Part shown: positions 15,780 through 49,854 of the stretch, in pieces
How positions within the stretch are numbered: the first letter of the stretch is position 1
Layout of the letters: every line of letters begins with the position of its first letter
NCBI GenBank assembly: GCA_964621065.1
Contig: CAZULG010000001.1
Coordinates: 11,082 to 75,081, forward strand
From: an uncultured Methanosarcinales archaeon
GTDB lineage: Archaea > Nanobdellota > Nanobdellia > Woesearchaeales > UBA583
Length of the DNA: 64,000 nucleotides
Reading direction: 5' to 3'
Notes under the pieces: model-generated
The model's input: only the letters and a program-made list of their open reading frames with translations
What the model was told of the DNA's origin: nothing
Databases searched by the model: none
Made by a program: the position numbers and the translations under genes

Positions 15780-15831
15780 TTATAAGAGAATTTAGTTGTT
15801 TTATATTTAAATAGTTACTGGTTTAGACTGA

Positions 15832-16350
15832 TTATTGTTTTATGATTTTAAAATTATTATATTTAAACAGGTATTGGGAGATATTAATATATTTTATTTG
15901 TTCGGCTTTACAAATTGTTGGAATTTTTAAAAACAAATTTTTATTATATTTCTCATTTGTAGTTTCGTTTGTTACAATTATAGGTGTTACATTTAATCTT
16001 GTCTTTTCTAAATGTTTTACTAATTCTATTAAATATAAATCTACATATTTATCAAGAAACTTTTTCTTTTCTGAATCAAAAACTCCATTAAATTTTGAAT
16101 TTTTATGTGCTAATTTTTCCAAAAAAAAAGTTTCTTCAACTTTTTGACTTAAAAAATTAGTATCTACTGACTTAATATTTTTCTTAAATGAATCATTTCC
16201 TACTAATTCTCCTTCTACTTTATCAATTACTACGACTTCTTCTGATTGAATTTTTTCTAATAAAAACGAGTACAACTCTTTATTATCATTAGAATAATAT
16301 TTAAAATAATCTATTAATGCACAGGTATCAAAAATAAATACAGGACTCAT
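15832..16350 (-). CDS. DUF4411-like PIN-like domain protein
   Basis: N-terminal VFIFDTCALIDYF acidic PIN-like motif; 172 aa; 4-nt overlap with the upstream ImmA-like gene. Confidence 0.45.
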   Translation of the reverse strand: MSPVFIFDTCALIDYFKYYSNDNKELYSFLLEKIQSEEVVVIDKVEGELVGNDSFKKNIKSVDTNFLSQKVEETFFLEKLAHKNSKFNGVFDSEKKKFLDKYVDLYLIELVKHLEKTRLNVTPIIVTNETTNEKYNKNLFLKIPTICKAEQIKYINISQYLFKYNNFKIIKQ

Positions 16351-17564: not shown

Positions 17565-17622
17565 ATTTTCAAAGAGTTATTAAAACTTATAAATTTTTGT
17601 TATTATTTGAAGAAGAGGGGAA

Positions 17623-18588
17623 TTATTCTAAGTCTTCTTCATCAAATCCTTTTACATTACTTTGATTTAATAAATTTACTTTTGTGGACTCTATTTCATC
17701 TATTTCATCCTGAGATTTGTATTCCTTAACTTCATACTTAGGAGAACTGATAATTTTCAATTCTCCTGTGATTTTATTTTTATCAATTTCTCTCCCTGTA
17801 ATTTCATATTTTAAAATGACTTCTCCTTCCTTCTCACATTTAACATAAATTTCAGGAAATCTTGTTGGAAAATGTTGATCTGCTTCTTCACACCAGTACT
17901 GAATGCGATTATTTGAACTAAGAAATACATTTTCACTAGGCTCAATTTTAGAATAAGACTTAATTTCAGGAAATTGGTTTTTATAAATATTAGGATACTC
18001 TCTAATAAAATTAAGTTTGTTTGATATACTTTCAAAGGTGATTCTTACATCTTCAACTCTTATATTTCCTAAATTATTAAGTTTAATTTTAAAAGGTAGG
18101 AATTCTTCCTCAATTTCCTTCAAAGCTTCTTCTTCAATTTGAGTTGGACCTTGGAAGAAATTAAATTTTCCTGATATTATAGAAGATAGAGATGAGCTTG
18201 GAAGACTTATCTTTTTTAATTCCTCTTTTTCTTCTTGAGTTAAGTCATCTTCTTTTTCATCTTTTATGAGTTTTCGTTTAGTAATTGTTGAATTTATTTC
18301 TATTTCTTTCAAATCATTATCAAATACTACATCTAATTTTGGTTTATTATCTTCAAAATGTTTAATTTTGTCAAGTTCTTCCTTCCAAACCTTGTAGGAT
18401 GAATATATTAAAGCTAAAACAAAAAAAATGACTGTTATAATAAAAATATACTTATCTGAAAGATTTACTCCAATTTTTAATGAAAAATCAAAATATGTAT
18501 TAACTAAACCTAAAATAGTTGGTATAATACCTATAACAGTAACCCAATTAGAAAATATTTTCTTCAAATAATATATTAAATCATTCAT
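17623..18588 (-). CDS. Uncharacterised protein with two N-terminal TM helices and a long charged cytoplasmic domain
   Basis: TM1 WVTVIGIIPTILGLV and TM2 IFIITVIFFVLALIY; the rest is Glu/Lys-rich; the start overlaps the hsdS stop by 8 nt. Confidence 0.35.
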   Translation of the reverse strand: MNDLIYYLKKIFSNWVTVIGIIPTILGLVNTYFDFSLKIGVNLSDKYIFIITVIFFVLALIYSSYKVWKEELDKIKHFEDNKPKLDVVFDNDLKEIEINSTITKRKLIKDEKEDDLTQEEKEELKKISLPSSSLSSIISGKFNFFQGPTQIEEEALKEIEEEFLPFKIKLNNLGNIRVEDVRITFESISNKLNFIREYPNIYKNQFPEIKSYSKIEPSENVFLSSNNRIQYWCEEADQHFPTRFPEIYVKCEKEGEVILKYEITGREIDKNKITGELKIISSPKYEVKEYKSQDEIDEIESTKVNLLNQSNVKGFDEEDLE

Positions 18589-19915
18589 TCTTTACTCTAA
18601 TTTCTCCTCTCATTAATTTTGGAAGTAAAACATCCCTTGTATTTTGAAGATATTGAATTTCATTTAAGTTATCAATATAATTATTAAAAAAATTTGAATA
18701 TATCTTTTCAAATTCAATTAGTGTATTTTTATTAGAAATCAAAAGAGAGATATTTTCTATTTCAGTAGAACTGATATTTGGTTGTGCTGAACCAATTGCT
18801 TTGTCTCTTATTTTTTTCAAATATTCATTGGAGTTGAAAACAATATATGAGTATAATAATCCATAATCAAAAATTTGTTTAAACATTCCTACTCGTTGAT
18901 TTAATAATAGTTTATAATTTGATTTTTGAACAACTCCTATTTTCCCTATTTCTGCACCAGTCATTGCAATTAAAATATCTTTTTCTTTAATTATAAATTT
19001 TGAATCTAAGTTTTGAATTGAATTATCATCAATAAATCCAGAATCTGTTAGGTTTACAATTCCTCCTGAAATATTTTTTATTTTGATTAATCTACTCTTA
19101 CTATATTTAACAAAATCTTTACTCTTAAATGCATAACCACTCTGGATTTTTACTAATTCTCCTAATCTTCCGGCTCTCCATCCCTTTGGAATTTCTTTTC
19201 CTAATTCTTCACAAAACACCATTTCTCCTCCATTTGATTTATATTCTTCTCCATTTTCATTTGGAAATTCAAAATCAACAAACCACCTTTTAAAAAGTGT
19301 TTTTCCCATCTCTTCAAGTGTTTGATTAATGTGTTTATTCATTTCAATTTTTGAGTCTAAATCACTTAAGATTTTCGCAATAGATTTTTGTTCTTCAATG
19401 GTTGGAGGGAGAGGAATATTGACTTTTTCTAAAATACTAACATATAAGTTTTTTTGAACACTTCCAACTGCCTTTGATTTTAGTTCTTCTCGAATCAATT
19501 TCAAAAAATTTAATATATATTTAGTTTGATTTTTATCAATTGGATTAATATTAATGATTGCTCTGTTTCCACACATAAAATCCTTCAAAACTCCTAATTT
19601 TCCAATTGTCCCAGACTTACTTATTGCAATAGACTCAGGTTCAAACAACTTAGCACTCTTGCCTGCACTTTTGAAACCTTCTTTAGAAAGCTTTCTACTT
19701 GTGTCATAGATAAAAGTATCATTTAAATCATTAACTCTTAACCATTTAATTTCATCACCAAAAAAATTTGGATTCGTTTGAGAAGGATTTACATATCCTT
19801 CTTGGAATTTACAAAGTTCTCCTAACTCCTTAACTTCCCAATCATGAGGGATTTTTCCAATTTCAGTATCTTTAAATTCTGTTTCTTTGTAAGTGTTCAT
19901 TTTAAAATCCTCCAA
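18581..19915 (-). CDS. hsdS: Type I restriction-modification specificity subunit HsdS
   Basis: Two target-recognition halves, each followed by a conserved helical spacer (HINQTLEEMGKTLFKRWFVDFEFP; NTRDVLLPKLMRGEI). Confidence 0.8.
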   Translation of the reverse strand: MEDFKMNTYKETEFKDTEIGKIPHDWEVKELGELCKFQEGYVNPSQTNPNFFGDEIKWLRVNDLNDTFIYDTSRKLSKEGFKSAGKSAKLFEPESIAISKSGTIGKLGVLKDFMCGNRAIININPIDKNQTKYILNFLKLIREELKSKAVGSVQKNLYVSILEKVNIPLPPTIEEQKSIAKILSDLDSKIEMNKHINQTLEEMGKTLFKRWFVDFEFPNENGEEYKSNGGEMVFCEELGKEIPKGWRAGRLGELVKIQSGYAFKSKDFVKYSKSRLIKIKNISGGIVNLTDSGFIDDNSIQNLDSKFIIKEKDILIAMTGAEIGKIGVVQKSNYKLLLNQRVGMFKQIFDYGLLYSYIVFNSNEYLKKIRDKAIGSAQPNISSTEIENISLLISNKNTLIEFEKIYSNFFNNYIDNLNEIQYLQNTRDVLLPKLMRGEIRVKNE

Positions 19916-21363
19916 TATCCAGCTTTTGTTGAACCTTCTCGCTTAATTATTCCTCTATCAACTAATTGCTTCAAATTATATTTAATCCCATCTTCAGATA
20001 TTTTCTCAATTATTAAAGAAAGTTCTTTTCTTGTAATTTTAGGATTTTTCTTAATTTCAAGTACTATTTTTTTCTGAATATCACTTAATATTTCTTGGGT
20101 AGTTTCTTGGGTAGTTTCTTGGGTAGTTTCTTGGGTAGTTTCTAGGTCTTTTTCTAGGTCTTTTAATCCCTCATCTTCTTTAGTAGTACTTAAAAAAAAC
20201 TCAATAGTGTAATTATCAATATCATTTCTAACAACAGGCTCTTGTTTATACAAACTCAACCAACCATTAAACATTTTATCAAATCCATATCCAGCATTTT
20301 CAGCTAAATCAACAACTCTAAATATTTTAGTAATAATGGGATTTCTAGGAAGAGAAATATCACAACTCCTTAAAATTTCATATGGTTTTGGTAAAGAACC
20401 AGGGTTAAAAAATTCAAATCTATTTGAAAACACTCTAATTCTAGGCTTCATTGGTGAAAAATAATCACTATGAATTAACAAATTAACTAAAGCTTCTCTA
20501 ATTGCTTTAACCTGTGGTTGATTCTCAACTCTATGAGGTCCACTCATTTCAAAAGGAACATCAATTTTTTTAATAATCCTCTCATAAATAGCAAAAAAAT
20601 ATTCAAACAAATTTGAATGTTGTGAAAGTCTAAACTCATATCTACGAAGAGAATCACTATAACTTGTTCCCATAATTTCTAAATAATCAACTCTAAAATC
20701 AACAAAATATCTAGAAATTGAATCTTCACTTCCAAAAACTAATAAACCTCCCAATGTAACATGTAAATTTTCATCTAAAACTCTAAGTTTAGTTAAAAAA
20801 TCAATATCATTTAAAGTATTATATTGATGTTCAGGTTTTAGATTTAATAAATATTGACGAAACCTTGAAATTGTCTCTTTATTCAAATCATCAATTCTTA
20901 AATTTGTAATCTCTCTATCCTTAGTCCCATAAGATGAATTTCTATACAAAGAATCAATTTCTTCTTGAGTTAATCTCTGATCTCCTGAACCAGTTCTAAT
21001 AAATGTATTTTTTAAAGAATTAAAATAAATAGGTTTCTTTTCAGCTATTGGAATATAAAAACCTAATACAATGTTATCTTCAAATTCCCATTTTTCACAT
21101 TTTGGAATTATTTTTTGATTAAATTTACCAACTCTTAGAGCAGTTGTAAAATCTTGTTCAATTTTTTCAGGATGTTTAACTCCAGTAATTTCAAAATTTT
21201 TACCTTTTTCACTCACTCCAAAAATTAGCCAACCACCCGAAGTATTTGAAAATGCTGAAACAGTTTCCCAAGAAGATTTAGGAATTGAAGAATCACAAGT
21301 TTTAAACTCCAAATCCTCCCATTCAATCCCTTCTAGATGTTTAACTAATTCCTCTTTTTTCAT
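19897..21363 (-). CDS. AlbA_2/Schlafen-like ATPase-type DNA-binding regulator (COG2865-like)
   Basis: N-terminal DLEFKTCDSSIPKSSWETVSAFSNTSGGWLIFGV (AlbA_2 domain), and a C-terminal HTH-like ITRKELSLIIEKISEDGIKYNLKQLVDRGIIKR; it sits between hsdM and hsdS. Confidence 0.55.
   Translation of the reverse strand: MKKEELVKHLEGIEWEDLEFKTCDSSIPKSSWETVSAFSNTSGGWLIFGVSEKGKNFEITGVKHPEKIEQDFTTALRVGKFNQKIIPKCEKWEFEDNIVLGFYIPIAEKKPIYFNSLKNTFIRTGSGDQRLTQEEIDSLYRNSSYGTKDREITNLRIDDLNKETISRFRQYLLNLKPEHQYNTLNDIDFLTKLRVLDENLHVTLGGLLVFGSEDSISRYFVDFRVDYLEIMGTSYSDSLRRYEFRLSQHSNLFEYFFAIYERIIKKIDVPFEMSGPHRVENQPQVKAIREALVNLLIHSDYFSPMKPRIRVFSNRFEFFNPGSLPKPYEILRSCDISLPRNPIITKIFRVVDLAENAGYGFDKMFNGWLSLYKQEPVVRNDIDNYTIEFFLSTTKEDEGLKDLEKDLETTQETTQETTQETTQEILSDIQKKIVLEIKKNPKITRKELSLIIEKISEDGIKYNLKQLVDRGIIKREGSTKAGYWRILK
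20091..20162. repeat. In-frame 12-nt tandem repeat inside the regulator gene
   Basis: TTTCTTGGGTAG x4 (20091-20138) then TTTCTAGGTCTT x2 (20139-20162); on the coding strand this encodes (TTQE)x4 preceded by (KDLE)x2. Confidence 0.9.
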
Positions 21364-21444
21364 TTTTCTTATTAATATTTATTGCTTATTTTATTAGTAA
21401 CTGTTTTTCCTATTAATATAAAACACCATTCTTTATTAGTAAGA

Positions 21445-22944
21445 CTAAATTTTAAATCCCAATCCTTCTAGATTCTTCTTGATCTCTTCTTCTAACTCAT
21501 CAGATTTTTTAAACTGCTCAGATAACTCATTAACCAATCTCCTCATTTTATCTTCATATGGCTCACTATCCTCCTCTTCATCTTTTACACCAACATATCT
21601 TCCTGGGGTCAGTACAAAATCTTGCTTAGAAACTTCATCAATGCTCACTGATTTACAAAATCCTTTAATATCTTCATAGTCTTGTGAATTTTGCCAACTA
21701 TGCACCGTTTGAGAAATATAGGAAATCTCATCAGAAGACAACTCTCTTAATCTTCTATTAATCATCTCTCCCATATCACGACAATCTACAAAGAGTATCT
21801 CATTTGTTCTCTTCTTATCTCTATTCAAGAACCACAAACATGCAGGAATTCCTGTGTTATAAAATAACTTATCAGGCAATGCAACAATACACTCAACTAA
21901 ATCATCTTTAATGATTTTCTTTCTAATCTCACCTTCTCCAGCAGTATTTGAAGACATAGAACCATTTGATAATACAAAACCAGCTTTTCCTTTTTGAGAT
22001 AAATGATAAATAAAATGTTGAACCCACGCATAATTTGCATTTCCATTCGGAGGCATACCATACACCCATCGAGGATCCTCTTGTAATCTATTAGCCCCCC
22101 AATCTGAAATATTAAACGGAGGATTTGCAATAATAAAATCAGCTTTCAAAGACGAATGTTGATTAAAATGAAAACTATCATCAGCTCTCTCTCCTAAATC
22201 ATGATCTAATCCTCGAATTGCTAAATTCATTTTACACAATTTCCAAGTAGTAGGATTACTTTCTTGACCATATATTGACAAATCTCCAACTCTTCCACCA
22301 TGAGCCTCCACAAATTTCTCACTCATTACAAACATTCCTCCACTTCCACACGCAGGATCATAAATTTTCCCCTCATAGGGTTCTAAAATCTCAACTAAAA
22401 GTTGAACAACGCTATCAGGAGTATAAAACTCTCCTCCGCCCTTTCCCTCAGCTGATGCGAATTTTCCAATAAAGTATTCATAAATTCTTCCCAAAATATC
22501 TTTACTCTCTTCATACGATTTTCCAGAATCAATTGAATGAATCAAATCAACAACTTCTCCAAGAACAACCTTATTCAACTCAGGTCTTCCATAATTTCGA
22601 GGCAATACATTTCTAAGTGTCTTATTATCCTTCTCAATTGAAATCATAGCATTATCGATAACTTCTCCAATCTCAGGAGTTTTTGCCTTCTCAACAATAT
22701 TTGACCATCTCGCATCTTTAGGAACAAAAAAGACATGATGAGCGAGATACTCATCCTTATCTTCAGGATCTGCATATTCTTCAGTTTTAATTCTCTCATA
22801 AATATTCTCAAAGGAATCAGAAATAAATTTTAAAAATATTAAACCCAAAATAACATGCTTATACTCAGAAGCATCCATATTATTTCTCAACTTATCAGCT
22901 GCAGCCCATAATTTAGCTTCCAATTTTGAATTTTCTTCAACCAT
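21445..22944 (-). CDS. hsdM: Type I restriction-modification methyltransferase subunit HsdM
   Basis: N6-adenine MTase motifs DPACGSGGMF (motif I) and IANPPFN (motif IV), plus the HsdM N-terminal domain. Confidence 0.9.
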   Translation of the reverse strand: MVEENSKLEAKLWAAADKLRNNMDASEYKHVILGLIFLKFISDSFENIYERIKTEEYADPEDKDEYLAHHVFFVPKDARWSNIVEKAKTPEIGEVIDNAMISIEKDNKTLRNVLPRNYGRPELNKVVLGEVVDLIHSIDSGKSYEESKDILGRIYEYFIGKFASAEGKGGGEFYTPDSVVQLLVEILEPYEGKIYDPACGSGGMFVMSEKFVEAHGGRVGDLSIYGQESNPTTWKLCKMNLAIRGLDHDLGERADDSFHFNQHSSLKADFIIANPPFNISDWGANRLQEDPRWVYGMPPNGNANYAWVQHFIYHLSQKGKAGFVLSNGSMSSNTAGEGEIRKKIIKDDLVECIVALPDKLFYNTGIPACLWFLNRDKKRTNEILFVDCRDMGEMINRRLRELSSDEISYISQTVHSWQNSQDYEDIKGFCKSVSIDEVSKQDFVLTPGRYVGVKDEEEDSEPYEDKMRRLVNELSEQFKKSDELEEEIKKNLEGLGFKI

Positions 22945-30439: not shown

Positions 30440-30821
30440 AGAAGTATTCTAGCAACTTCGTTGCTAGTATTAATTCAAGCTGCGAAGCAGCTTAGTCTAC
30501 GAATAATAATATACTTCCTCAGAAGTTATCACTTCCGAACCTTGTGAAAGGAGACATTCACTTTGTTCAATCTCCTGATTATTTTCAAGCTCCTAAGTTC
30601 AAGCTGCGAAGCAGCTTAGTCTACGAATAATAATATTCTACGGATTGTCTCTGCTCATTGTCTTTAACAGAGTGCTTCTTATTAATTCTCGGTCGTTTTG
30701 TATGTTCTTCTCATCCAGCTTTTTTTACACCGTTCGTTTTCAACTCACTCAAAAAAAGTTGTGCAAAAAAACTGCTCTCGCTACACTCAAGCCCCTAAGT
30801 TCAAGCAACGAAGTTGCTTAA
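30440..30821. repeat. Tandemly reiterated hairpin units downstream of ABCE1, including a duplicated copy of the ABCE1 3' coding end
   Basis: Hairpins with GAA/TTC triloops at 30450-30466, 30477-30493, 30601-30617 and 30804-30818. Segment 30474-30512 is near-identical to 30598-30636. Segment 30624-30712 is ~95% identical to the true ABCE1 end 30824-30913. Confidence 0.6.
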
Positions 30822-32576
30822 CTAAGAATAATAATATTCTCCGGATTGTCTCTGCTCATTGTCTTTAACAGAATGCTTCTTATTAATTCTCGGTCGTTTT
30901 GTATGCTCTTCACGCCTAAACGTAATATCAACTCCTTTTAAGAAATGATTCATCCCATCTCGCATCCCACTAGGAGAGTTAGCAACTCCTCTAATACTTG
31001 GCTCTCCATCAAATACCATCAATCTGTGTGACAAATAATCCATAAAAATTAAGTCATGATCAATCACAAAACACGCTTTCTCTTTAAGTTCAATAAAATT
31101 TTTAATCACTTTTGCAACCACAAGTCTATCCTCTACGTCTAAAAACGCAGTTGGTTCATCAAGTAAATACACCTGAGCGTCTTCCAATAAACACCGAGCA
31201 ATAGCAAAACGCTGTAACTCTCCCCCTGATAATTCATTAATTTGTTTCTCCTCTAAATTGTGGATTTTTAACGGGTCTAACACATACAATTTATAGAACG
31301 AATCAGTATAATTATTCATCGCACCCAGAACAGACATCACTAAATCATCTTGCTTCTCAATTAACTGCTCTTTATATGAAATCACTTTCCCATCAAGACC
31401 AACTTCATTAACATGCTTCATAAATGTTGATTTTCCAAGAGCATTTCTACCAATAATTCCAATAATCTCTCCTTTTGAAATATGACCTGCTTGAATCTCA
31501 ACTTGAAAATCTCCTCGCTTAACAATTTCTTGAGGCCAACTTACATATGCAGATCTTACTTGCTCATCTAACACACTCTCTTTATTAAACGAAATTGGTT
31601 TATCTCGAAACTGAATATTCTCATCTTTTGAGTACCCTTCTAAATACTCATTCATTCCCTGACGCGCATTTTTAATATTTGTCAACTTTCCATATACACT
31701 TGGCTGACCATACATTAAATGAATATTATCAATTAAAAAATCTAAAATTACCAAATCGTGCTCAACCACTAACGCTGATTTTTCGCCAACTACTTCTTTA
31801 ATAATTTGAGCAGTATTCAATCGCTCATACACATCCAAATAGTTTGTCACTTCATCTAATACATAAAAATTTGCATTCTCTTTCAATAAACACGCACAAA
31901 TTGCAACACGTTGCAGTTCTCCTCCAGACAAGTGTGAAATGTCACGCTCAAGTATTTGCTCAACATTTAAACTCTTCGCTCGCGCTTTAACTTTTTCTTC
32001 GTTACTCTCAACTCTGTGTAGTAAATTTTTTACAACTCCTTTAAATTTTTGAGGAATTTGAATGATTTGTTGTGGTTTAAACGCAACTGTAATATCTTGG
32101 TGCTGCAAAGATGTGAAATATTGTTGCATAATTGTTCCTTTATATTGACCAATAAGTGCTTTAAAATACTCTTCTTTTGTCTCATATGTATTTTCAACAT
32201 CTCCAAAATTTGCTTGAATAAGACCTGCTAAAATTGAAATCACTGTTGACTTTCCAATTCCATTTTTCCCCAAAATACCAACAATTTTGCCATCTTCAAC
32301 ATAAGGTAGATTAAACACACGAAACCCATTTTTACCATATTGATGAATAGGAGGAGTTTTATCTTCATCGGGTAAATTAATAATTGAAATCGCATGAGGG
32401 GCAGCTTTGACGCAAATCCCACACCCTATACATAATACTTCATCAATTAAAAGCTTCTCTCCTTCAAAATACATACAATCAGCTCCTCTACGATTTACAG
32501 GGCAGAGTGATTGAATATGTTTTTTTTCACTCATAACTTTTAATTTTTCATTATTTATAACAGCAAGTCTTGGCAT
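30822..32576 (-). CDS. abcE1: ABCE1 / RNase L inhibitor ribosome-recycling ATPase
   Basis: N-terminal 4Fe-4S cluster motifs (CPVNRRGADC...CIGCGICVKAAP) and two ABC ATPase domains (GKNGIGKST; LSGGELQRV x2). Confidence 0.9.
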   Translation of the reverse strand: MPRLAVINNEKLKVMSEKKHIQSLCPVNRRGADCMYFEGEKLLIDEVLCIGCGICVKAAPHAISIINLPDEDKTPPIHQYGKNGFRVFNLPYVEDGKIVGILGKNGIGKSTVISILAGLIQANFGDVENTYETKEEYFKALIGQYKGTIMQQYFTSLQHQDITVAFKPQQIIQIPQKFKGVVKNLLHRVESNEEKVKARAKSLNVEQILERDISHLSGGELQRVAICACLLKENANFYVLDEVTNYLDVYERLNTAQIIKEVVGEKSALVVEHDLVILDFLIDNIHLMYGQPSVYGKLTNIKNARQGMNEYLEGYSKDENIQFRDKPISFNKESVLDEQVRSAYVSWPQEIVKRGDFQVEIQAGHISKGEIIGIIGRNALGKSTFMKHVNEVGLDGKVISYKEQLIEKQDDLVMSVLGAMNNYTDSFYKLYVLDPLKIHNLEEKQINELSGGELQRFAIARCLLEDAQVYLLDEPTAFLDVEDRLVVAKVIKNFIELKEKACFVIDHDLIFMDYLSHRLMVFDGEPSIRGVANSPSGMRDGMNHFLKGVDITFRREEHTKRPRINKKHSVKDNEQRQSGEYYYS

Positions 32577-33265: not shown

Positions 33266-36200
33266 ATGAATTATCAATTTCTATTTTTAAAAAAATTGTA
33301 TCTTTTTTTTGCATTTTTTGTTCTCTTCTCAATCATCTTAGCGCCTCAGAGTTATGCTATTTGTGAAGTAACATCATTTATTAATCAAACTACTCCATCT
33401 CCTCAGGATAGATCTTGCTCTTCAGATGATGGGTATGTTATTACAGATATTACAGGAGATATTTACTGTAGTAATGACCCATTCAATCCTGGAGATTTTG
33501 AGTTTAAAAAAATAACAATTGAAAATTCAAATATTAACTTTATCAATTGTAACTTTAAATATGCAAGTGGAGCATCTGAAGAAATCGATATTTCAAATTC
33601 AACAATTGCTGGATATGGACTAAAGTTTGAATCACCATCTTCTATTGAAAATAATTTTATTTCAGAATTTACAAATGATTCAACAAATTCATATTATGGT
33701 TTTGAGAATAATTTATTCGATATTTACAAAGGAAATGACTCAACACAAGTGTTTGCTCAAGGTGTTGATATTAAAAGAGGTTTTTCAATTCAAAATACTT
33801 CAAGTGGAAATTTTACGAGTATTTCTAAATTTAATACATTAAAAACAATTCCCGATGTAATTGGAAGTGTTGATATGTATCATGTGTATGTGCCATTTCA
33901 ATCGATAACTAATAGTAGTGCAAATAATGATTTTGATAAATCATACAACATTGAATTTGATTTTGATAGTTCAATTGACTCATTGAATTTCTCTTATTCT
34001 AATTTTTCCTCCCTTGATGTTATTCAAGAAGTTCAGATTCCAAAAAACTATCCTCCAACACCCCTCATTGCTCAATATATGTATAATCCTACAACAAATT
34101 ATCAAGAAATTGAAATTAATTTTGATGAATATGTTCAATCGTTAAATATAACAATACTTGATTCAACAAATCAAGAAGTTTTTAATTATTCAGGTGGAGG
34201 ATTAAAAAATATCAGTTTAGAAAATCTTCCTTTTGATTTAAATGAGAGTGAAGAATATGAAGTTCAATTTGAATACATTGATTATTTTTCAAACGCAGAT
34301 TTGAAAAGTATTATTTTAAAATCACCAAGTATTAATAACACAGAGTTTGAAGATGAGTTTTCATTAAATTATATATTTAACCAATCATCAACTGCAACGT
34401 TAGATGCAACGCTGCAAATTGAACCAACAGCAATCTCAACTCCACTCTCCTCACTAGAATTCTCGTCAACTTCACTCTCAAGCCCATTATTTAATATTAC
34501 AAATTCAACTCAAATAACATTTAACTCAAGCTCAATATTTACAATTCCAACAAACTCAAGTTTCTATCAACCTCACAAAGGAGTTATTTCATCTTCTGCG
34601 TTTAATTCATCTCCTGTTGTACAACTCGATAATTCTTCATTTGCTCAATCAACACGTAATAGAGATGGAAATTTTCAATATTCAATTTCTACTCCTAGAA
34701 ATGTATTTGAGATTTTAAACAATACTAAAATCACACCTCAATTTCCTGAAGATATTTATTTTAATAAATCATTTACACTTGAAGCATTATATCTTCAAAC
34801 AAGTGATAATTCACTCATATCTCCCTCCTCGTGTACTATTTACTACAACACACTAACCCCAACACAAACCGTTCAAAATATGACCTTTCAACCATCTCTT
34901 TCAACATTTAATACTTCAATATTATTCAGAGAGTTTTACCCACTCCAACAACCCTTAACTATTCAATGTTCAAATGAACTTGGACTTGAGAATGTATCTA
35001 ATACATTTACAATTAATCAAACAACCCAACCAATTGATAATTTTACAAGTGATATCTCTTACAATCCTAAAAGCCCAGGATCATTTACAACAATTGAAAA
35101 AGAGCTCAATATTAGTATTTCATCTCAAGGTTCTCAAAATATTAACTCTAATTTTGATAATGAATACTCAGTTATGATTTCTCGAATTGAATATTTAAGA
35201 GAGGGATGGAATACGAGCAGAAATTTAACAAATTGGATCAATATTGGAAAAAATGAAGAAGCAAGATTTTCGCATAGCGATCTGAACTATTCTAAATCAA
35301 TTAGACTTGATTTAGAAAATTCTTCAACTCAACAATTAAATAATAGTTTCATATTTAGAGATATTAAAGATGAAAATGGAGATGCAATTTCTTTATTTGT
35401 TATTGTAAAATCTTGTGTACCACCGTATTCAAATGAAGCATGTGAATTTTTCTCTAACTCATCTCAATTTTATATCTTTCAAGACTCAACTCCTCCACTG
35501 CTTTATGATTTTGCGCTTAGAAATATGACCAATGATGATAATTTTTACATAAGAATTAATGTTGATGATTTAGAAAGTGATATTGAATACGCAAATATGA
35601 GATTTTCAAATGCACATAACACCTCAGACTCATTCTCCCTTCCACTCACAAATTACATTAGTGAAGAACTTGGAATTCAAAATGCACCATTAAATAGTAT
35701 CTCATCAATTGAAGAAGGAATTTTATATAATCTCTCAATTAATACTTCAAATAACAATAACATTGCAAATGAAAATCTTGATATTCAAAACCAACTGCTT
35801 CTTGATAACCAGCCGCCTAGTAATTCAAGTCTTCAATTACTCGATACATCTTTATACAATACTTCACATAATAGATTTTACACTAACAATGGAACTCAAG
35901 TTAAGTTTAATATAACATCTGGATTTGATAATTTTATTGGATATCAAAATAATAGTGGAATTAGTCACTACAATCTTACACTATATTCTATGTCAAATGA
36001 TTGCTCAATTCGAGAAAATCAATCAAACTCAATATCAAACAATATTAGTGATAATCAAACCCAAATTATAACTCTCAATATGACTCAAGACACGTGTAAT
36101 GAGCTTGAACTTGTTGTGTTTGATAACGCTGGAAATCAAGAAGTTGTGGATACACTTGAAATAGTTGTTGATACAACCCCTCCAACATTTAATAATGTAG

Positions 36201-39200
36201 ATGGACAACTCAAAATATCACCTATAGGCTCTAACAGCAAATTTTTTAACAGAGATAATCTCAACAAAGACTCAGTTTTATTTAGTTATCAATACGATAT
36301 AAGTGATGATTTAACACCTTTAAAGGAAATCACAGTTAATTTGTATGAGAAACTTAATACAACTGGAGCATCTTCTAATTTAGTTAAACAACTTAATGTC
36401 TCAACTGATTCAAAACAAATTGATTTTACGCTTAGTAATTATTCATTTAAAGATAATCGAAAGTATAAAATTGGAATTGTTGCAGAAAATTTTGCTCAAC
36501 TGCAAACTCCTCAAATTGAATCTTCTGAAATATTTCTAGGATTAACATCCTCTCTCAATATTACACCAAAAGGATTTTTACGAGAAGATGATAATTCATT
36601 TTATTACTCACCACAATTTCTCAATGGAGCTAATTATCCACTTGAATTTAATAATAATAATCAAGCAGATGTAAGTTGTTCTCTTAATACAATTATTCAA
36701 AATTATTCTCTAAGTGATACAAATCAATGCAGTTTAAGTCCAGATAGTTCAATTCTCTCTTGTCAAGCATCTCAAAGTGATATTGAGCAATACGAATACG
36801 TTATTGCAAATTGTTTCATCAGTAATGTTGAAGAAGATGTTCAAGAATATTTCTCTAAAAATATCTCATTTACAACTCTTAATCAAACAAGTAGAGCAGA
36901 TATTGATTTTCAAGTTATCCCAAATAGAACATTTTTCTTTGATAATGAGACAATTGGATTTAATTTTACAACAAAAAATGATAGAGATGATGCTACATAT
37001 TTATTAGAGCAAACACTCAACTCCCCCACAAATAATATTAGTTCAATGAAATTTAATCAAAAAGGACAAAATTTAACACGAGATAATTTGAGTAATTTTA
37101 ACACCTCAATCACACCAACTGCGTCTCAATCTTTTTTCATATTTAATAATTCATATAATAAAACTTCACCTGTGCTCAATTTTACATATAATGGACTCAT
37201 TCCAATATATGAATTTAAATTTAATAATTCTATAAATCAATCACAAATTAACTTGTTAATAGAAAATTTTTTAAGTGAAAATCAAAATGTTGAAGATAAA
37301 CTAACTACTAATTTAACAGTTAATCTCACAGCACCTATCACTAATAGTTTTACTCTTAACACTTCAAATTTTAATAGAAAATTAGACTTTGATACAAGCA
37401 TTATTGAACACGAATTTATGATTCCTAATTTGAATAATAATCAACTCACATTTGAAGCATTAATTGATCAGAGTAATAAATTTGAGGATATTTATTTGAA
37501 AAATTTAAGCACTTACACGTCTTACTTAAACTATAGCACTTCTAATACATTTAATTTTGAATTTTTTGATTATTTCTCATTTGATAATAATGTGACATTC
37601 TCATTCAATTCAACTGATGAGCCAGATGAGCTGCAACTAAACTCATCTCAAAGTTTTAATTTGACACTTGATCCAACTCAAATTAACAAAATTAATTTAT
37701 CTAAATTCATCATTAACAACAATACACAAATTCCTAGCAGTCTCTATTCTATCTCAACACAAATCTCAAATACTCCTTCAACGCTTGAATACAGTTTAAA
37801 CAATAATTCTAAAAATACAGTTGAAGAAGAGTTAATGCTCTATTTAAATGATGGAATAACTAATTCTGAGCAAACAATTGATGTAGTTATGAGTGATAAT
37901 TTTGGATCCTCAGTTTCATTTGAATTAAATTTAAATTGGAATTTAAGTCAAATTAATAGCAGTAGTTATGATATGTCTGAATTCAATACAAATATTTCAA
38001 ATTTCATTACAAAAAAGCAATCATCTTGGTACATTGATTTTGGTGTGGAGCAGAATATAATCTCTCAAATCTCATTTGAAATCGAAAATTCAACAGTTGA
38101 ATATCCTCTCAATATAGATGGTAAAGTGAATGATTCAATTTATACTCTTGCATTTACAAAACAAATTTATGATGAGCTCCATAACAAGTATTTCAATGAA
38201 GATGTTTATGAAGTAGATATCTCAACCACATACACAACTCCTTTTGATATTGAATTTACAGTTAATGATACAATAGAGTTTGATTTTGATGTGAATGAAA
38301 ATACTATTTCAGATAGATTTGACATAGATTTAGATAATAATGGTATTAATGATTTAATACAATCAATAATCTATAATAAAAGTCTTGTGTTCAATATTCC
38401 TACTTCAAATGTAGAAGAAACATTTAATCTTACAAATACGAGTTATTTTAATATCTCATCTGATGTATTTAATTCAAATATTATAATTTCATGGAATGAT
38501 AACAACTCAAATGTGTGGGACTTTTCTTCAACGTATGTGAATATAGAAGAAGTTGAAATTGAAAATTTTAATAAAGTTGGTTCAAGAATGAGCATTGATA
38601 AGTTCCCTAAATTTGATTCAAAAAAATCAATTCAAGTTCCAAAAATTTCTCAAAATAGTGAGTTACAATATTGTATAGGAAATAACGAAAATCTTCAAAC
38701 TTCTAGTAGTTGTAGCGGTAGTGATGAATATCTTGTTGAGAGTTGTGACTCATCAATTGGTGGAGGAATTGAATGTGTTGAAGAGTCTAATAGCTTGACA
38801 TTTACAAATCTCTCATTTACAACTATTGAGACCATTTGCAGTTCTTGTGAAGAAAGTAATGATGACTCCTCTGATGATTCTTCTGGAAATGATAATGATG
38901 GAAGTTCTGGAGGAGGTTCTAGCAGTGGTGGCTCTTCAAGTGGTGGAGGCGGAGGAAGTTCTGGAGGAGGATTTGTAACACAACCCGATATTGAAGAAAA
39001 TAAATCAGATGAGGATGAATCTCAACAAGATGAAGAAAATGGTAGCAATAATGAACCCGAAGAAGTAGAAGAAGTTGATGAAAATGATACTCAAACAACT
39101 GAAGATTCTGATAATGAAAACAATAACAATAATGAAGAAAATCAAACAACTACTTCTGAAGAAAATGAACAAGAAAATGCTCAAGATGAAGTTCCCACTA

Positions 39201-39790
39201 CACCTGAAGAAGAGTCTTCAATGTCTACAATATTAATAGCAGCAGTAATTATTTTGCTACTAATAGTTGCTATTGTTGGTGTTTATTTATATCAACAAAA
39301 GAAGAAAAAGAAAAGAACATCAGCTCTTAGTGTTAAAAATTATAAACAACAAAGTAGCCTATCTAACGAAAAAACACAAAGACCTTTAACTTCTCTAACA
39401 CTTAGAGAAAGAGAAGAATTTTTAACTAAAATTGGGCCATTAATCTATAAAAAAACTCCGTTAAGTGTAATTGCAAAGAAATATAATATTTCTACTAAAA
39501 AAGATATTCAAGAACTATTAAATATGATATATGTAGACACATTTATTGAAAACATTAAAAGAGAACTTGAGAAAAAAACATTTATGCTTACTCCTCAAAT
39601 TATCTCAGAGTTGAAAAATACAAAGTGGTTTAATTCTCTCAATCCATGCTCTGACAATTCTTCATATTTAAGAGATTTAGGCTTTTTCATATCTCAATAC
39701 AAAATAACTCATGTGTTCAACTCAAATGAATTAAAAGAAATAATTACTGATTCTATTTATGAAGAAATATCATCTCAAAATGAAAACTAA
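33266..39790 (+). CDS. Giant (2174 aa) cell-surface protein: signal peptide, huge N/S/T-rich ectodomain, Ser/Gly and acidic stalk, one TM anchor, ~150-aa cytoplasmic tail
   Basis: N-terminal LFFAFFVLFSIILAPQSYA signal and hundreds of N-x-S/T sequons. Near the C-terminus GSSGGGSSSGGSSSGGGGGSSGGG then a poly-acidic stretch. TM ILIAAVIILLLIVAIVGVYLY is followed by a KKKKKR stop-transfer and a tail containing TPLSVIAKKYNISTKKDIQELL. Confidence 0.6.
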   Translation: MNYQFLFLKKLYLFFAFFVLFSIILAPQSYAICEVTSFINQTTPSPQDRSCSSDDGYVITDITGDIYCSNDPFNPGDFEFKKITIENSNINFINCNFKYASGASEEIDISNSTIAGYGLKFESPSSIENNFISEFTNDSTNSYYGFENNLFDIYKGNDSTQVFAQGVDIKRGFSIQNTSSGNFTSISKFNTLKTIPDVIGSVDMYHVYVPFQSITNSSANNDFDKSYNIEFDFDSSIDSLNFSYSNFSSLDVIQEVQIPKNYPPTPLIAQYMYNPTTNYQEIEINFDEYVQSLNITILDSTNQEVFNYSGGGLKNISLENLPFDLNESEEYEVQFEYIDYFSNADLKSIILKSPSINNTEFEDEFSLNYIFNQSSTATLDATLQIEPTAISTPLSSLEFSSTSLSSPLFNITNSTQITFNSSSIFTIPTNSSFYQPHKGVISSSAFNSSPVVQLDNSSFAQSTRNRDGNFQYSISTPRNVFEILNNTKITPQFPEDIYFNKSFTLEALYLQTSDNSLISPSSCTIYYNTLTPTQTVQNMTFQPSLSTFNTSILFREFYPLQQPLTIQCSNELGLENVSNTFTINQTTQPIDNFTSDISYNPKSPGSFTTIEKELNISISSQGSQNINSNFDNEYSVMISRIEYLREGWNTSRNLTNWINIGKNEEARFSHSDLNYSKSIRLDLENSSTQQLNNSFIFRDIKDENGDAISLFVIVKSCVPPYSNEACEFFSNSSQFYIFQDSTPPLLYDFALRNMTNDDNFYIRINVDDLESDIEYANMRFSNAHNTSDSFSLPLTNYISEELGIQNAPLNSISSIEEGILYNLSINTSNNNNIANENLDIQNQLLLDNQPPSNSSLQLLDTSLYNTSHNRFYTNNGTQVKFNITSGFDNFIGYQNNSGISHYNLTLYSMSNDCSIRENQSNSISNNISDNQTQIITLNMTQDTCNELELVVFDNAGNQEVVDTLEIVVDTTPPTFNNVDGQLKISPIGSNSKFFNRDNLNKDSVLFSYQYDISDDLTPLKEITVNLYEKLNTTGASSNLVKQLNVSTDSKQIDFTLSNYSFKDNRKYKIGIVAENFAQLQTPQIESSEIFLGLTSSLNITPKGFLREDDNSFYYSPQFLNGANYPLEFNNNNQADVSCSLNTIIQNYSLSDTNQCSLSPDSSILSCQASQSDIEQYEYVIANCFISNVEEDVQEYFSKNISFTTLNQTSRADIDFQVIPNRTFFFDNETIGFNFTTKNDRDDATYLLEQTLNSPTNNISSMKFNQKGQNLTRDNLSNFNTSITPTASQSFFIFNNSYNKTSPVLNFTYNGLIPIYEFKFNNSINQSQINLLIENFLSENQNVEDKLTTNLTVNLTAPITNSFTLNTSNFNRKLDFDTSIIEHEFMIPNLNNNQLTFEALIDQSNKFEDIYLKNLSTYTSYLNYSTSNTFNFEFFDYFSFDNNVTFSFNSTDEPDELQLNSSQSFNLTLDPTQINKINLSKFIINNNTQIPSSLYSISTQISNTPSTLEYSLNNNSKNTVEEELMLYLNDGITNSEQTIDVVMSDNFGSSVSFELNLNWNLSQINSSSYDMSEFNTNISNFITKKQSSWYIDFGVEQNIISQISFEIENSTVEYPLNIDGKVNDSIYTLAFTKQIYDELHNKYFNEDVYEVDISTTYTTPFDIEFTVNDTIEFDFDVNENTISDRFDIDLDNNGINDLIQSIIYNKSLVFNIPTSNVEETFNLTNTSYFNISSDVFNSNIIISWNDNNSNVWDFSSTYVNIEEVEIENFNKVGSRMSIDKFPKFDSKKSIQVPKISQNSELQYCIGNNENLQTSSSCSGSDEYLVESCDSSIGGGIECVEESNSLTFTNLSFTTIETICSSCEESNDDSSDDSSGNDNDGSSGGGSSSGGSSSGGGGGSSGGGFVTQPDIEENKSDEDESQQDEENGSNNEPEEVEEVDENDTQTTEDSDNENNNNNEENQTTTSEENEQENAQDEVPTTPEEESSMSTILIAAVIILLLIVAIVGVYLYQQKKKKKRTSALSVKNYKQQSSLSNEKTQRPLTSLTLREREEFLTKIGPLIYKKTPLSVIAKKYNISTKKDIQELLNMIYVDTFIENIKRELEKKTFMLTPQIISELKNTKWFNSLNPCSDNSSYLRDLGFFISQYKITHVFNSNELKEIITDSIYEEISSQNEN

Positions 39791-47439: not shown

Positions 47440-47591
47440 CAGCTTTTCAAAAAAACAAGGTCGCTCTTTTCAATCGTTCGTTGTATTAATCTTAAGATGA
47501 ATATTTGTGCAAAAAAATTGTTTTCGCTAAGCTCAAACTCCTAATTCTAGTAGCGAAACTACTAATATCTACTTCAAGTAACGAAGTTACT
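47440..47591. repeat. Conserved 3'-flanking element shared with the ABCE1 downstream region (30711-30820)
   Basis: ...CGTTCGTT...TTGTGCAAAAAAAYTGYTYTCGCTA..CTCAA.C.CCTAA.TTC...AGYAACGAAGTTRCT is shared; the terminal hairpin 47577-47591 spans the DP2 stop codon; a second hairpin TAGTAGCGAAACTACTA lies at ~47550-47566. Confidence 0.5.
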
Positions 47592-49854
47592 TTCCAAAAT
47601 AATCTCCAAGTCCTTTTTGTTTCTCAAGCTCCTTTCCAAATACTCCTTCCATTCTCAAATTTACAAGTTCTAAACTCTCAACAATGTATGGATCAACTCG
47701 AAAATCTTTTGTGATTTTAAATGATGGAGCTAAATATTTTTTAATTGAACCTTCATGAATTGTGAAATTAATAGAAGTTGAATAACAATTAGAACATCTC
47801 CCATTCAATGGAGGCCTTCTGTAAATAGTATTACAACTTGTACATCGAAAACTCTGCATTCCAAATTTTCTCAAATTTCCTTTAATGTCTTTCATAAAAT
47901 GCTTATCAATCACTAGCTCTCCCACTTTATTCTCATCAACAGCTCGAATTTTTCGCCCAATTTCTAATTGTTCTGATAATTTTTCTGCCATTGAAGGAAG
48001 TGTTTTATATGAAGAACACAAAATCGTATCATTCATATCATCAGTATCATGCGTAAAAAAATATCCTAAATATTCCTCATCTTTAATTTCTTTCCCTATT
48101 CTATTCTCAACATGCTCAATTTTTACACTTTTAGGAGGAGCGTATTCTCTACAAGCTTTATAAAAATTAAGAGGATAAAATGGAACAATATCCATCCCAT
48201 GAACCTCATCATCAATCTGATCCAAATACAAATGAGAAGTTAATACTAATGATACATCCATTGTCTTAGAACCTCTTCTATTTGGTAAAAATTCACGTGA
48301 CCCGTTTAATAACCCATCTAATAAAAGCATCACTCCGTTCTCATCTCCATCTAAATTACGCCTCTGAGCAGCGTGCCAAACAGGGTGAGAAAAACAACCT
48401 TGAGATTTTGAATATCCAATAATTCTCCCCGTAATACCTGCAGAAGTATGAGGAGCAAGCCCAATTATTATATGCCCAATTGTATCTTCTTTTGATTTAA
48501 AATTATAGTATGGTTGTTCTAAATAAATTTTCTCAAGCAACTCATCAATGAATTGTCCTGTTTTTACAATAATATCACTTGCTTTTTCTTCAAACCCTTC
48601 ATCACAATCAGGAAGTATAACATCTTGAGGAAAAATTTCAACAATTTGATTCTCATCTGTAAGTTCCTCTCCTTTGTAATCATGTGTGTATCCCATCTCT
48701 TTGAGTTTATCAATTGATGTTAAAATTTCTTTTGGCTTAAAGTGCGTAATTCCCATCTCAATCATATCATATCGAATCGTACCATCTTTATTGACATACA
48801 AATCATACTTCTCTCTCAAAAACGCTTTTTCTAAAATTTCAATTGATTTATGCTCATTTGCAGTTCCACGGATTCCTTTCACTATTTTAGGAAGTTGAGT
48901 AAGTTTCAAATTCTCTCTCACTTGTTTAATATAAGGCTCTAAATCTAAAGACATACGTTTGTATTGAACTGCTAATTCATCCTCTTTATTTACTCGAGCA
49001 CCTGTGTATCTATTAAAATATTGAGGAGTACATACTCCTCCACAATATACACATTTTGGATATACACATTCCTCCCCGCAACTCTGACACTCCATTAATC
49101 GAAATTCTCCACTGACCTCACCACCTTCATACGCCTCAATAATATTTCTCATTCGATTTTGTATAACATCTGAGCTGATTTCATCATCTCCAAATCGTCT
49201 TTCAATTTGAACTGACTTACCATTTCCAATTGTAAATAATCCTTGTGGACGACCATCTAGTTTTCTCAATTTTGCCTTCTCAGGACGCCCCATTCTTGCA
49301 CCAATATATGTTCCTGCTTTATCACGAATCTCAATTGATGAATACACATTAATAATTTCAAGCATGGACTTATTCAAATGTTCTCTACATAATTGCTCAA
49401 TATTTGAAAAGTGTGATATATATTTCTCAACTAATGATTGACTTTTAATTTCTCTCTCATCCTTAACATCAATCCACTCTAAAATACCACAATTAGATAT
49501 AAAAGCTAGAAATGAGTTGTCTTGAAACAAAATGGTATCAACTCCCTCTTCTTTTCCCATCCATTTGTGCTCAATTCCTAAATGCTCAAATTTATCTTTA
49601 TTACGTGTTTTAATTCCAAATAACTTTAACTCCTTATCAACATACAAATTTTGAAGTTCTCCAAACACATCAACCCCACGTTGAGGACTTAACTCATTAA
49701 AATAAAAAATATAGTGTGGATGCAGGGATACATCAAATTTTTGTGAGAGCATAATTGCATCCTTTAAAGATGGTTTAGAATAGAGAGGATTAGAAACATA
49801 CTGCTCGTATTTACTTTTGAGCGTTGAATTCAAAATGTAAAAAGAAAAATCCAT
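47587..49854 (-). CDS. DNA polymerase II (PolD) large subunit DP2, central and C-terminal portion only
   Basis: IGARMGRPEKAKLRKL, zinc fingers CQSCGEECVYPKCVYCGG and CTSCNTIYRRPPLNGRCSNC, catalytic region GLAPHTSAGITGRIIG...AAQRRNLDGDENGVMLLLDGLLN. At 755 aa it is far shorter than canonical DP2, and a stop codon lies 2 codons upstream of the ATG. Confidence 0.85.
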   Translation of the reverse strand: MDFSFYILNSTLKSKYEQYVSNPLYSKPSLKDAIMLSQKFDVSLHPHYIFYFNELSPQRGVDVFGELQNLYVDKELKLFGIKTRNKDKFEHLGIEHKWMGKEEGVDTILFQDNSFLAFISNCGILEWIDVKDEREIKSQSLVEKYISHFSNIEQLCREHLNKSMLEIINVYSSIEIRDKAGTYIGARMGRPEKAKLRKLDGRPQGLFTIGNGKSVQIERRFGDDEISSDVIQNRMRNIIEAYEGGEVSGEFRLMECQSCGEECVYPKCVYCGGVCTPQYFNRYTGARVNKEDELAVQYKRMSLDLEPYIKQVRENLKLTQLPKIVKGIRGTANEHKSIEILEKAFLREKYDLYVNKDGTIRYDMIEMGITHFKPKEILTSIDKLKEMGYTHDYKGEELTDENQIVEIFPQDVILPDCDEGFEEKASDIIVKTGQFIDELLEKIYLEQPYYNFKSKEDTIGHIIIGLAPHTSAGITGRIIGYSKSQGCFSHPVWHAAQRRNLDGDENGVMLLLDGLLNGSREFLPNRRGSKTMDVSLVLTSHLYLDQIDDEVHGMDIVPFYPLNFYKACREYAPPKSVKIEHVENRIGKEIKDEEYLGYFFTHDTDDMNDTILCSSYKTLPSMAEKLSEQLEIGRKIRAVDENKVGELVIDKHFMKDIKGNLRKFGMQSFRCTSCNTIYRRPPLNGRCSNCYSTSINFTIHEGSIKKYLAPSFKITKDFRVDPYIVESLELVNLRMEGVFGKELEKQKGLGDYFGK

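Follow-up and report, generated by a model that had tools for sequence, protein, structure and literature searches.

The DNA analysed here is a 64,000-nt stretch of contig CAZULG010000001.1, which we refer to as the window. The subject of this study is a single gene on its forward strand, at positions 33266–39790, which is an uninterrupted open reading frame (ORF) with an ATG start that encodes a protein of 2174 aa. An original prediction had described this gene as the largest in the window, and its product as a surface protein of a small-genome DPANN archaeon with a helix-turn-helix (HTH)-like segment in a cytoplasmic tail. The gene is indeed the largest; the second-largest ORF, for a type I restriction subunit, has only 1052 aa. 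A full-length protein search showed that an identical protein has already been deposited as a hypothetical protein of a metagenome-assembled genome (MAG) of “Candidatus Nanoarchaeia archaeon”. The G+C content of the window is 19–34%, and Pfam scans identified the archaeal markers ABCE1, with its Fe-S domain, PolD DP2 and Cdc6/Orc1. The owner of the gene is a DPANN (Nanoarchaeia) archaeon. Hence, the guess at a small-genome DPANN organism was right, because the deposited self-match, the archaeal markers and a relative of the protein in a Nanoarchaeota MAG all point to it. The protein belongs to a family of seven, consisting of the window protein and six relatives.

The layout of the protein is summarized in Table 1. 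The N-terminus, MNYQFLFLKKLYLFFAFFVLFSIILAPQSYA, which is followed by ICEV after the predicted cleavage site, has a Kyte-Doolittle peak at residues 5–25, and the S-[YF]-A c-region is kept in the orthologues. Cleavage after S-Y-A is therefore the likely outcome, judging from these sequence features. The stalk has 37 Ser and Gly residues followed by a segment with 39 Asp and Glu residues versus a single Lys or Arg, and both its length and its sequence differ among the relatives. A hydrophobic transmembrane stretch of 21–29 aa is present in 6/6 full-length family members. It is followed by a Lys/Arg cluster in every relative, even though the sequence of the linker itself is not conserved. The signal peptide, the Ser/Gly-rich and then acidic stalk, the single transmembrane helix and the KKKKKR cluster had all been predicted, and all are present. 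The cytoplasmic tail had also been predicted, at ~150 aa; it exists, but is slightly longer (165 aa, residues 2010–2174). The predicted order of signal peptide, ectodomain, transmembrane helix and cytoplasmic tail is borne out as well: the Lys/Arg cluster after the transmembrane helix and an enrichment for glycosylation sequons that is limited to the region outside the tail together support a type I topology, with the N-terminus outside and the C-terminus inside.

Table 1. Features of the giant gene and its protein. Nucleotide positions are those of the window. Ratios of nonsynonymous to synonymous substitution rates (dN/dS) are rough, since dS is near saturation (0.5–1.4), though their ranking is clear. 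pLDDT, predicted local distance difference test; Ig, immunoglobulin; FN3, fibronectin type III; MG, macroglobulin.
Feature	Residues	Nucleotides	Strand	dN/dS	Description
Predicted signal peptide	1–31	33266–33358	+		predicted cleavage after S-Y-A; KK n-region, hydrophobic core, S-[YF]-A c-region
Membrane-distal N-terminal region	32–260	33359–34045	+		invariant Cys 33, 51, 68 and 95; short regular β-strands in the model
Fastest-evolving part of the ectodomain, membrane-distal	30–600			0.42	
Modelled seven-strand β-sandwich (Ig/FN3-like)	~265–350	34058–34315	+		AlphaFold2 model residues 237–323, pLDDT 62–78; Foldseek matches to Ig/FN3/MG chains
Conserved ectodomain core	600–1200	35063–36865	+	0.16	mean pairwise identity 0.52; modelled β-sandwiches at ~899–1189, pLDDT ~55–78
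Variable, dispensable ectodomain region	1214–1705	36905–38380	+		missing in P0005; identity 0.35
Membrane-proximal Cys-rich module	~1715–1865	38408–38860	+	0.17	identity 0.53
Low-complexity stalk	1866–1985	38861–39220	+		Ser/Gly-rich, then strongly acidic
Single transmembrane helix	1986/7–2009	39221–39292	+		top hydropathy of the protein, 3.33
Basic juxtamembrane linker	2010–2036	39293–39373	+	0.94	KKKKKR at 2012–2017; identity 0.23
Cytoplasmic all-α domain, eight helices	2037–2174	39374–39787	+	0.155	AlphaFold2 model, conservation, dN/dS
“HTH-like” segment TPLSVIAKKYNISTKKDIQELL	2064–2085	39455–39520	+		helix 2, five-residue loop and helix 3 of the tail domain

The family is small. Only P0002 and P0003, which are 35–37% identical to the window protein, came up as relatives in the full-length search. 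An exhaustive hidden Markov model (HMM) search of 1.84 billion cluster representatives with a profile of the tail matched only members of the family (P0001, P0003, P0004, P0005, P0006 and P0007). One of these, P0006, is 48% identical to the window protein, at the top of the 35–48% range spanned by the six relatives. Another, P0004 (locus L004), is encoded in the Nanoarchaeota MAG mentioned above, and was the sole match among the GTDB species representatives. No relative came from two scans of metagenome contigs of the Joint Genome Institute, which used ectodomain patterns in one case and the tail pattern DLGFFI[TS][KQ][YFS] in the other. P0007, a 176-aa protein that consists of a transmembrane helix and the tail, has the appearance of a stand-alone tail protein but is an artefact: a run of N at positions 2560–2640 of L005 splits a full-length giant orthologue, such that the public gene calls list an 874-aa fragment and the 176-aa P0007. 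A further candidate, P0008 (924 aa), was rejected as a family member since only the last helix pair of the tail is matched, through tandem 29-aa repeats. P0008 has at least 13 tandem units of ~29 aa, “ITNFLILKIFNQKELKEILYESIEAKKES”, that match the last two helices of the tail (profile positions 107–130, E 2e-6). Its N-terminus resembles UvrD-helicase-C, and the protein further contains a stretch similar to ankyrin and hydrophobic segments at the C-terminus.

The giant gene is single-copy, and self-BLASTP found no paralogue of its product in the window. Upstream of it, in the divergent orientation, is a gene of the HIT family; downstream, in the same orientation, is a gene for RpiB. This arrangement is identical in 7/7 family members, which are true orthologues. 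Identity among the giant orthologues is 35–40%, as compared with 59–83% for the neighbouring genes, indicating that the giant gene is evolving much faster than its neighbours. Divergence is unevenly distributed along the protein. A regional Nei-Gojobori comparison of the genes for P0002 and P0004 (Table 1) places the membrane-distal N-terminal part of the ectodomain well above the ectodomain core, the membrane-proximal Cys-rich module and the tail domain, with the juxtamembrane linker highest of all. There is also variation in length: P0005 (1706 aa; L009–L011) lacks the ~490 aa that correspond to the variable ectodomain region, and identical assemblies of it were recovered from at least three samples. 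The natural shortness of P0005 implies that this region is dispensable. We considered a diversity-generating retroelement or tandem repeats as the source of the variability, and rejected both, as the window contains no template-like direct repeat of the gene and tandem repeats are absent.

Composition and modelled fold of the ectodomain

The protein as a whole is 13.5% Ser, 12.6% Asn and 8.0% Thr, and contains 98 N-x-S/T sequons. Within the ectodomain (~1830 aa) there are 92 sequons, whereas shuffles that preserve composition give 52.0±6.2 (z=6.5). In the tail there are two, versus 2.4 expected (z=-0.3), and pooling the remaining 45 ORFs of the window gives 125, versus 108 expected. The Asn/Ser/Thr-rich ectodomain with many sequons that had been predicted is thus confirmed, and the excess is specific to the ectodomain. 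Eleven sequon columns occur in 6/6 full-length family members, and the window protein shares 31 of its 98 sequons with at least three other members. The sequon enrichment, together with the Lys/Arg cluster after the transmembrane helix, supports selection for N-glycosylation, and we infer that the ectodomain is N-glycosylated.

The isoelectric point (pI) of the ectodomain is 4.05–4.24 in 6/6 full-length family members. Proteome-wide acidity of the kind seen in halophiles can be ruled out as the cause: the median pI of the window ORFs is 6.1, and the acidity is therefore peculiar to the giant protein. Consistent with the original prediction, internal repeats were not detected by self-BLASTP, by Tandem Repeats Finder, or by tiled profile-profile comparison with hhalign (best probability 5.8%).

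There is no family match to the ectodomain in Pfam or NCBIfam, including no match to any Ig, FN3 or Big model of Pfam, and a search of PDB sequences with an ectodomain profile gave nothing at E≤10. Sub-threshold matches to RIFIN, ASFV_J13L and Orf78 in Pfam, and to PknB_PASTA_kin, MacP, FtsH and others in NCBIfam, lie over the low-complexity stalk and transmembrane helix, far below the cutoffs, and were dismissed as compositional.

The AlphaFold2 model of residues 30–1200, built from six sequences, is moderately confident in parts: strands at residues ~50–140, the sandwich at ~265–350, and consecutive sandwiches at ~899–1189. A Foldseek search of the PDB with this model gave 214 matches at E≤1e-3. 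Among the 50 of these 214 matches that were listed, 50/50 are multi-domain β-sandwich proteins, mostly chains of tandem Ig, FN3 or macroglobulin domains. They include cytokine receptors, TEP1, complement C3 and titin-like chains, as well as the Marinomonas ice-binding adhesin MpIBP (4p99, 5irb) and Vibrio RbmA. As modelled, the confident parts of the ectodomain are tandem Ig/FN3-like β-sandwiches, several of them consecutive. Three D-x-[TQ]-P-P motifs, at residues 740–744, 847–851 and 969–973, look like inter-domain junctions. In the N-terminal region, residues 32–260, the model has a pattern of short, regularly spaced strands (pLDDT 55–79) that is possibly a β-solenoid cap. Structure prediction of the ectodomain had been proposed as a check on the original prediction, and the outcome is Ig-like sandwiches in the modelled parts and a possible β-solenoid at the N-terminus.

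In the membrane-proximal Cys-rich module, six columns are invariant (C1803, C1816, C1827, C1837, C1858 and C1861). Close to this position, immediately before the Gly/Ser stalk, five of the six relatives (P0002–P0005; L001, L002/L003, L004, L005 and L009) have a ~40-aa Trp/Cys module with the pattern W-x-x-G-[SA]-W-S-x-C-x-x-G-x-Q-T-R-T-V-T-A-x-H-N-C-G...R-S-C. All four segments compared with the Pfam family TSP1_ADAMTS (PF19030) scored 13.7–17.5 bits (E 0.005–0.08), below the cutoff of 23.8. This thrombospondin type 1 (TSP1)-like module is missing from the window protein and from P0006; the deletion falls after residue ~1860 of the window protein (nt ~38850). A TSP1-like repeat would be unusual in an archaeal surface protein.

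The cytoplasmic tail domain

The AlphaFold2 model of the tail, for which the input was only three sequences, is a single compact domain of eight helices (pLDDT 91.6, predicted template modelling score 0.85). Hence, the fold prediction that had been suggested as a check yields a confident all-α fold. The tail is present in all six relatives, together with the transmembrane helix and the basic linker. The last ~135 residues are conserved, with identity of 0.42–0.48 in 7/7 members, and the last four helices contain an invariant pattern, W-F...Y..DLGFFI...F....L.EI..D. The dN/dS of the tail, though rough, is as low as that of the ectodomain core, indicating purifying selection. Absence or lack of conservation of the tail in orthologues, together with the lack of a predicted HTH fold, had been named in advance as a result that would refute the original prediction; the tail is instead kept in all relatives, constrained and confidently folded. 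Foldseek found no fold match to the tail model in the PDB (best E=2, template modelling score ≤0.28) or in BFVD (best E=1.5), and Pfam has no match to the tail. What is new here is a small, strongly constrained cytoplasmic domain that has no detectable relative in sequence or fold and is confined to seven known proteins.

Is the tail a helix-turn-helix? If so, a membrane-tethered HTH could signal contact by binding DNA, either at the membrane or after proteolytic release. There is some resemblance. The first three helices of the tail, of 16, 7 and 10 residues, carry the motif [GK]-x-[ST]-[LI]-S-x-I-[AC]-K-x-x-x-I, and the two helices of the predicted segment correspond to model residues 30–36 and 42–51. 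As in the small tri-helical HTH domains of serine recombinases and of LuxR/GerE, a helix is followed by Gly or Lys, by “S-L-S-x-I-A-K”, by a loop and by an amphipathic helix. With the N-terminal half of the seven-sequence tail profile as query, the best match among PDB sequences is the HTH of the Bin3 serine recombinase (E=0.015, 24 residues). When the tail was aligned by hhalign to a LuxR/GerE alignment, the probability was 43% and the score 23.3, versus 8.5±1.8 for column shuffles, with 0/200 shuffles reaching it; this alignment had been put together by hand and was picked after the motif had been seen. The Pfam family Sf6_terminase is weakly matched by 2/7 tails (E 0.069).

Other observations argue against an HTH. 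The second PDB match, which is equally good (E=0.029), is not to an HTH but to the helical domain at the C-terminus of GatB. Pfam searches with the window tail (E≤1) and with all seven tails (E≤10) gave no significant HTH family, an HMM built from the LuxR-type alignment scored the tails at ≤2.3 bits, within the background of unrelated window proteins, and there is no HTH protein among the Foldseek matches to the tail model. The loop between helices 2 and 3 has five residues, longer than in the tri-helical domains, and hhalign places a three-residue gap there. The putative recognition helix has a hydrophobic, heptad-like i/i+3/i+4 face and no invariant basic residue (alignment columns 41–51), and the folded domain has a net charge of 0 to -5 and a pI of 5.0–7.3 in the six full-length members. 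In contrast to the known HTH domains, the tail has no basic surface and no family-level match, and the three helices are part of a membrane-tethered domain of eight. The motif resemblance is real but weak and unspecific. The three helices may be a sub-fold derived from an HTH; DNA binding by the tail is unlikely. Thus, neither the HTH label of the original prediction nor the signalling function that it drew from this label is supported, and we regard contact signalling by a DNA-binding tail as very improbable. Instead, we infer that the tail is a protein-protein interaction module that binds a cytoplasmic partner.

Candidate functions and known systems

What is the function of a surface protein with these features? 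With moderate confidence, we favour a type I membrane glycoprotein that acts in the envelope or in adhesion and is coupled to the cell interior by its cytoplasmic domain. The surface or host-attachment role of the original prediction is of this type, and the matches to tandem β-sandwich proteins fit a surface or adhesion role. We propose that the protein is exported by Sec, cleaved after S-Y-A and heavily N-glycosylated. It would form an elongated rod of β-sandwiches, held off the membrane by the flexible, negatively charged stalk. The conserved core and the Cys-rich proximal module would be the scaffold, and the fastest-evolving, distal third would touch a partner outside the cell, which is most likely a host or neighbouring cell surface. 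The tail domain, acting as something other than a DNA-binding HTH, would connect the protein with a partner inside the cell, and so serve its positioning, its clustering or outside-in coupling.

Several points weigh against this reading. The lineage has no known host or binding partner, and the cytoplasmic partner of the tail is hypothetical. The giant gene has no functionally linked neighbours; its flanking genes are housekeeping genes. Searches of Pfam and NCBIfam gave no recognised domain of an adhesin, a lectin or an S-layer protein. Overall, the quality of the ectodomain model is poor (mean pLDDT 46.6): residues ~355–870 are not resolved in it, and residues 1200–1870 lie outside it; hence, the assignment of β-sandwiches applies to about a quarter of the ectodomain. 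Finally, the selection argument relies on dN/dS values that are rough.

An alternative explanation, possible but clearly less probable than the coupled envelope or adhesion protein, is that the protein is the surface-layer (S-layer) protein of the clade, either the main or a membrane-anchoring subunit. The ectodomain would then form the lattice, the stalk and transmembrane helix the anchor, and the tail would set the spacing or the site of assembly. The gene is single-copy and syntenic in 7/7 family members, and S-layer proteins are typically poorly conserved. Among the archaeal S-layer glycoproteins that are anchored at the C-terminus are csg of Haloferax volcanii, SlaB of Sulfolobales, and tetrabrachion. 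Like them, the giant protein is acidic and sequon-rich, has Ig-like β-sandwiches in its model, and is anchored at its C-terminus through a low-complexity stalk; the Ser/Gly/acidic region that adjoins the transmembrane helix resembles the region beside the C-terminal anchor of the Haloferax protein. However, the giant protein is larger, the tolerated ~490-aa internal deletion in P0005 is awkward for a lattice subunit, the weakest constraint is in the distal third, and a structured cytoplasmic domain is, to our knowledge, not a feature of known S-layer proteins. Pfam and NCBIfam searches with P0001, P0003 and P0006 found no S_layer_N/C, DUF1608, halobacterial SLG or SlaA/SlaB. S-layer proteins are often orphans, so the missing family match does not exclude this function. 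S-layer-like proteins with a C-terminal transmembrane helix have been proposed in Nanobdella, although the DPANN S-layer candidate MJ1_0160, at 1000 aa, is well short of 2174 aa (bioRxiv 10.1101/2023.10.27.564410).

Two further explanations have less in their favour. It is improbable, though more plausible than DNA binding as the function of the tail, that the protein is an adhesion receptor that relays host contact across the membrane to the tail, which would then recruit or release a partner. At the extreme, a tri-helical unit of HTH descent would act on DNA, either while bound to the membrane or once cleaved off. Such a relay would amount to a cadherin-, integrin- or ToxR-like logic in a DPANN symbiont, with a cytoplasmic fold that has no known relative. 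Eukaryotic type I adhesion receptors include the cadherins and the integrin subunits, with short structured or partner-binding tails. By analogy only, the giant family resembles these receptors in its β-sandwich ectodomain, single transmembrane helix and conserved tail, and in the TSP1-like module of five of the six relatives; it is not homologous to them, no partner of it is known, and nothing points to signalling. The least credible explanation is that the C-terminal hydrophobic segment is a PGF-CTERM-like sorting signal removed by an archaeosortase, or that the protein is shed, such that the tail has no function in the mature protein. Archaeosortase processing at a C-terminal transmembrane segment is common among archaeal surface glycoproteins. 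Nonetheless, there is no PGF motif before the transmembrane helix and no NCBIfam PGF-CTERM match. Moreover, archaeosortase sorting signals end a few residues beyond the transmembrane segment, whereas 165 residues follow it here, including a confidently folded domain under purifying selection. We rank this explanation low because of the missing motif and the constrained domain.

How does the favoured type I glycoprotein compare with surface proteins described in other DPANN archaea? In Nanobdella aerobiophila, orphan surface proteins such as MJ1_0299, MJ1_0309, MJ1_0707 and MJ1_0076 have been described, in a set that also includes pectin-lyase-like β-helix proteins (bioRxiv 10.1101/2023.10.27.564410). 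Like the window protein, these are orphan DPANN proteins with a signal peptide, many sequons and a C-terminal transmembrane helix, and several have Ig-like folds. As described, they end at the transmembrane helix, and a cytoplasmic domain is not mentioned for them; the window protein has in addition a folded, conserved domain of 135 aa in the cytoplasm. We found no sequence relationship to them, as the full-length search gave only three proteins, all of the giant protein's own family. The SPEARE giants of Nanohaloarchaeota (SVXNc_0300 and BNXNv_0298), which have been proposed to contact the host, are 8880–9409 aa long, with ~75 tandem Ig-like repeats, a Sec signal peptide, one transmembrane helix, a cytoplasmic VirB4/TraG-like ATPase and an adjacent gene for a second ATPase (PMC10266531). 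The window protein is also a DPANN giant with a signal peptide, an Ig-like ectodomain as modelled, a single transmembrane helix and a cytoplasmic C-terminus. In contrast to SPEARE, it has 2174 aa and no detectable repeats, its α-helical tail is an orphan, and its neighbours are housekeeping genes. Pfam and NCBIfam gave no ATPase or P-loop family for the window protein, and the adjacent HIT and RpiB genes do not encode ATPases. The giant family shares the surface-protein logic of DPANN archaea yet belongs to neither the Nanobdella nor the SPEARE set.

Host recognition and attachment by DPANN archaea are largely unknown, and sequence alone gives no way to rank the many orphan surface proteins that their genomes encode. 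The giant family is a tractable case: a single syntenic gene encodes a fast-evolving tip, a constrained core modelled as β-sandwiches, a dispensable middle and, inside the cell, a strongly constrained domain whose fold is apparently new. One more orphan surface protein from DPANN archaea is in itself unsurprising, but the conserved orphan tail is a concrete handle on how such a protein is coupled to the cell interior. If the tail does bind a cytoplasmic partner, it would give access to the machinery beneath contact sites. If, on the other hand, the protein is the S-layer protein of the clade, this would be a useful, though unsurprising, annotation.

Other features of the window

A defence island on the reverse strand, at 12621–22944, encodes the type I restriction-modification proteins HsdR (1052 aa), HsdS and HsdM. 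Within it are genes for a Schlafen/AlbA_2-HATPase_c_4-wHTH protein (19897–21363) and for a protein with an IrrE-like M78 peptidase (16347–17564). The last 90 nt of the ABCE1 gene (30822–30911, reverse strand) are duplicated at 30621–30710 with 96% identity, and a 42-nt repeat is present at 30474–30515 and 30598–30639. The gene content of the interval between the genes for CysRS and ABCE1 differs in related genomes. The region at 30474–30911, at the 3ʹ end of the ABCE1 gene, has the look of a variable island or of a scar left by integration.

The PolD DP2 ORF, at 47587–49854 on the reverse strand, encodes only 755 aa. It comprises the central domain, from profile position 147, and the catalytic domain, and its N-terminal part is missing. 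This may reflect a split gene, as occur among Nanoarchaeota, or a mis-called start. The window also encodes three transporters: a BCCT betaine/choline transporter (6130–7776), a Na+/H+ exchanger with a TrkA-N domain (60324–61988) and a CorA Mg2+ transporter (62546–63610). These hint at an osmotically demanding habitat. As its median pI indicates, the window proteome does not have the acidity of a halophile.

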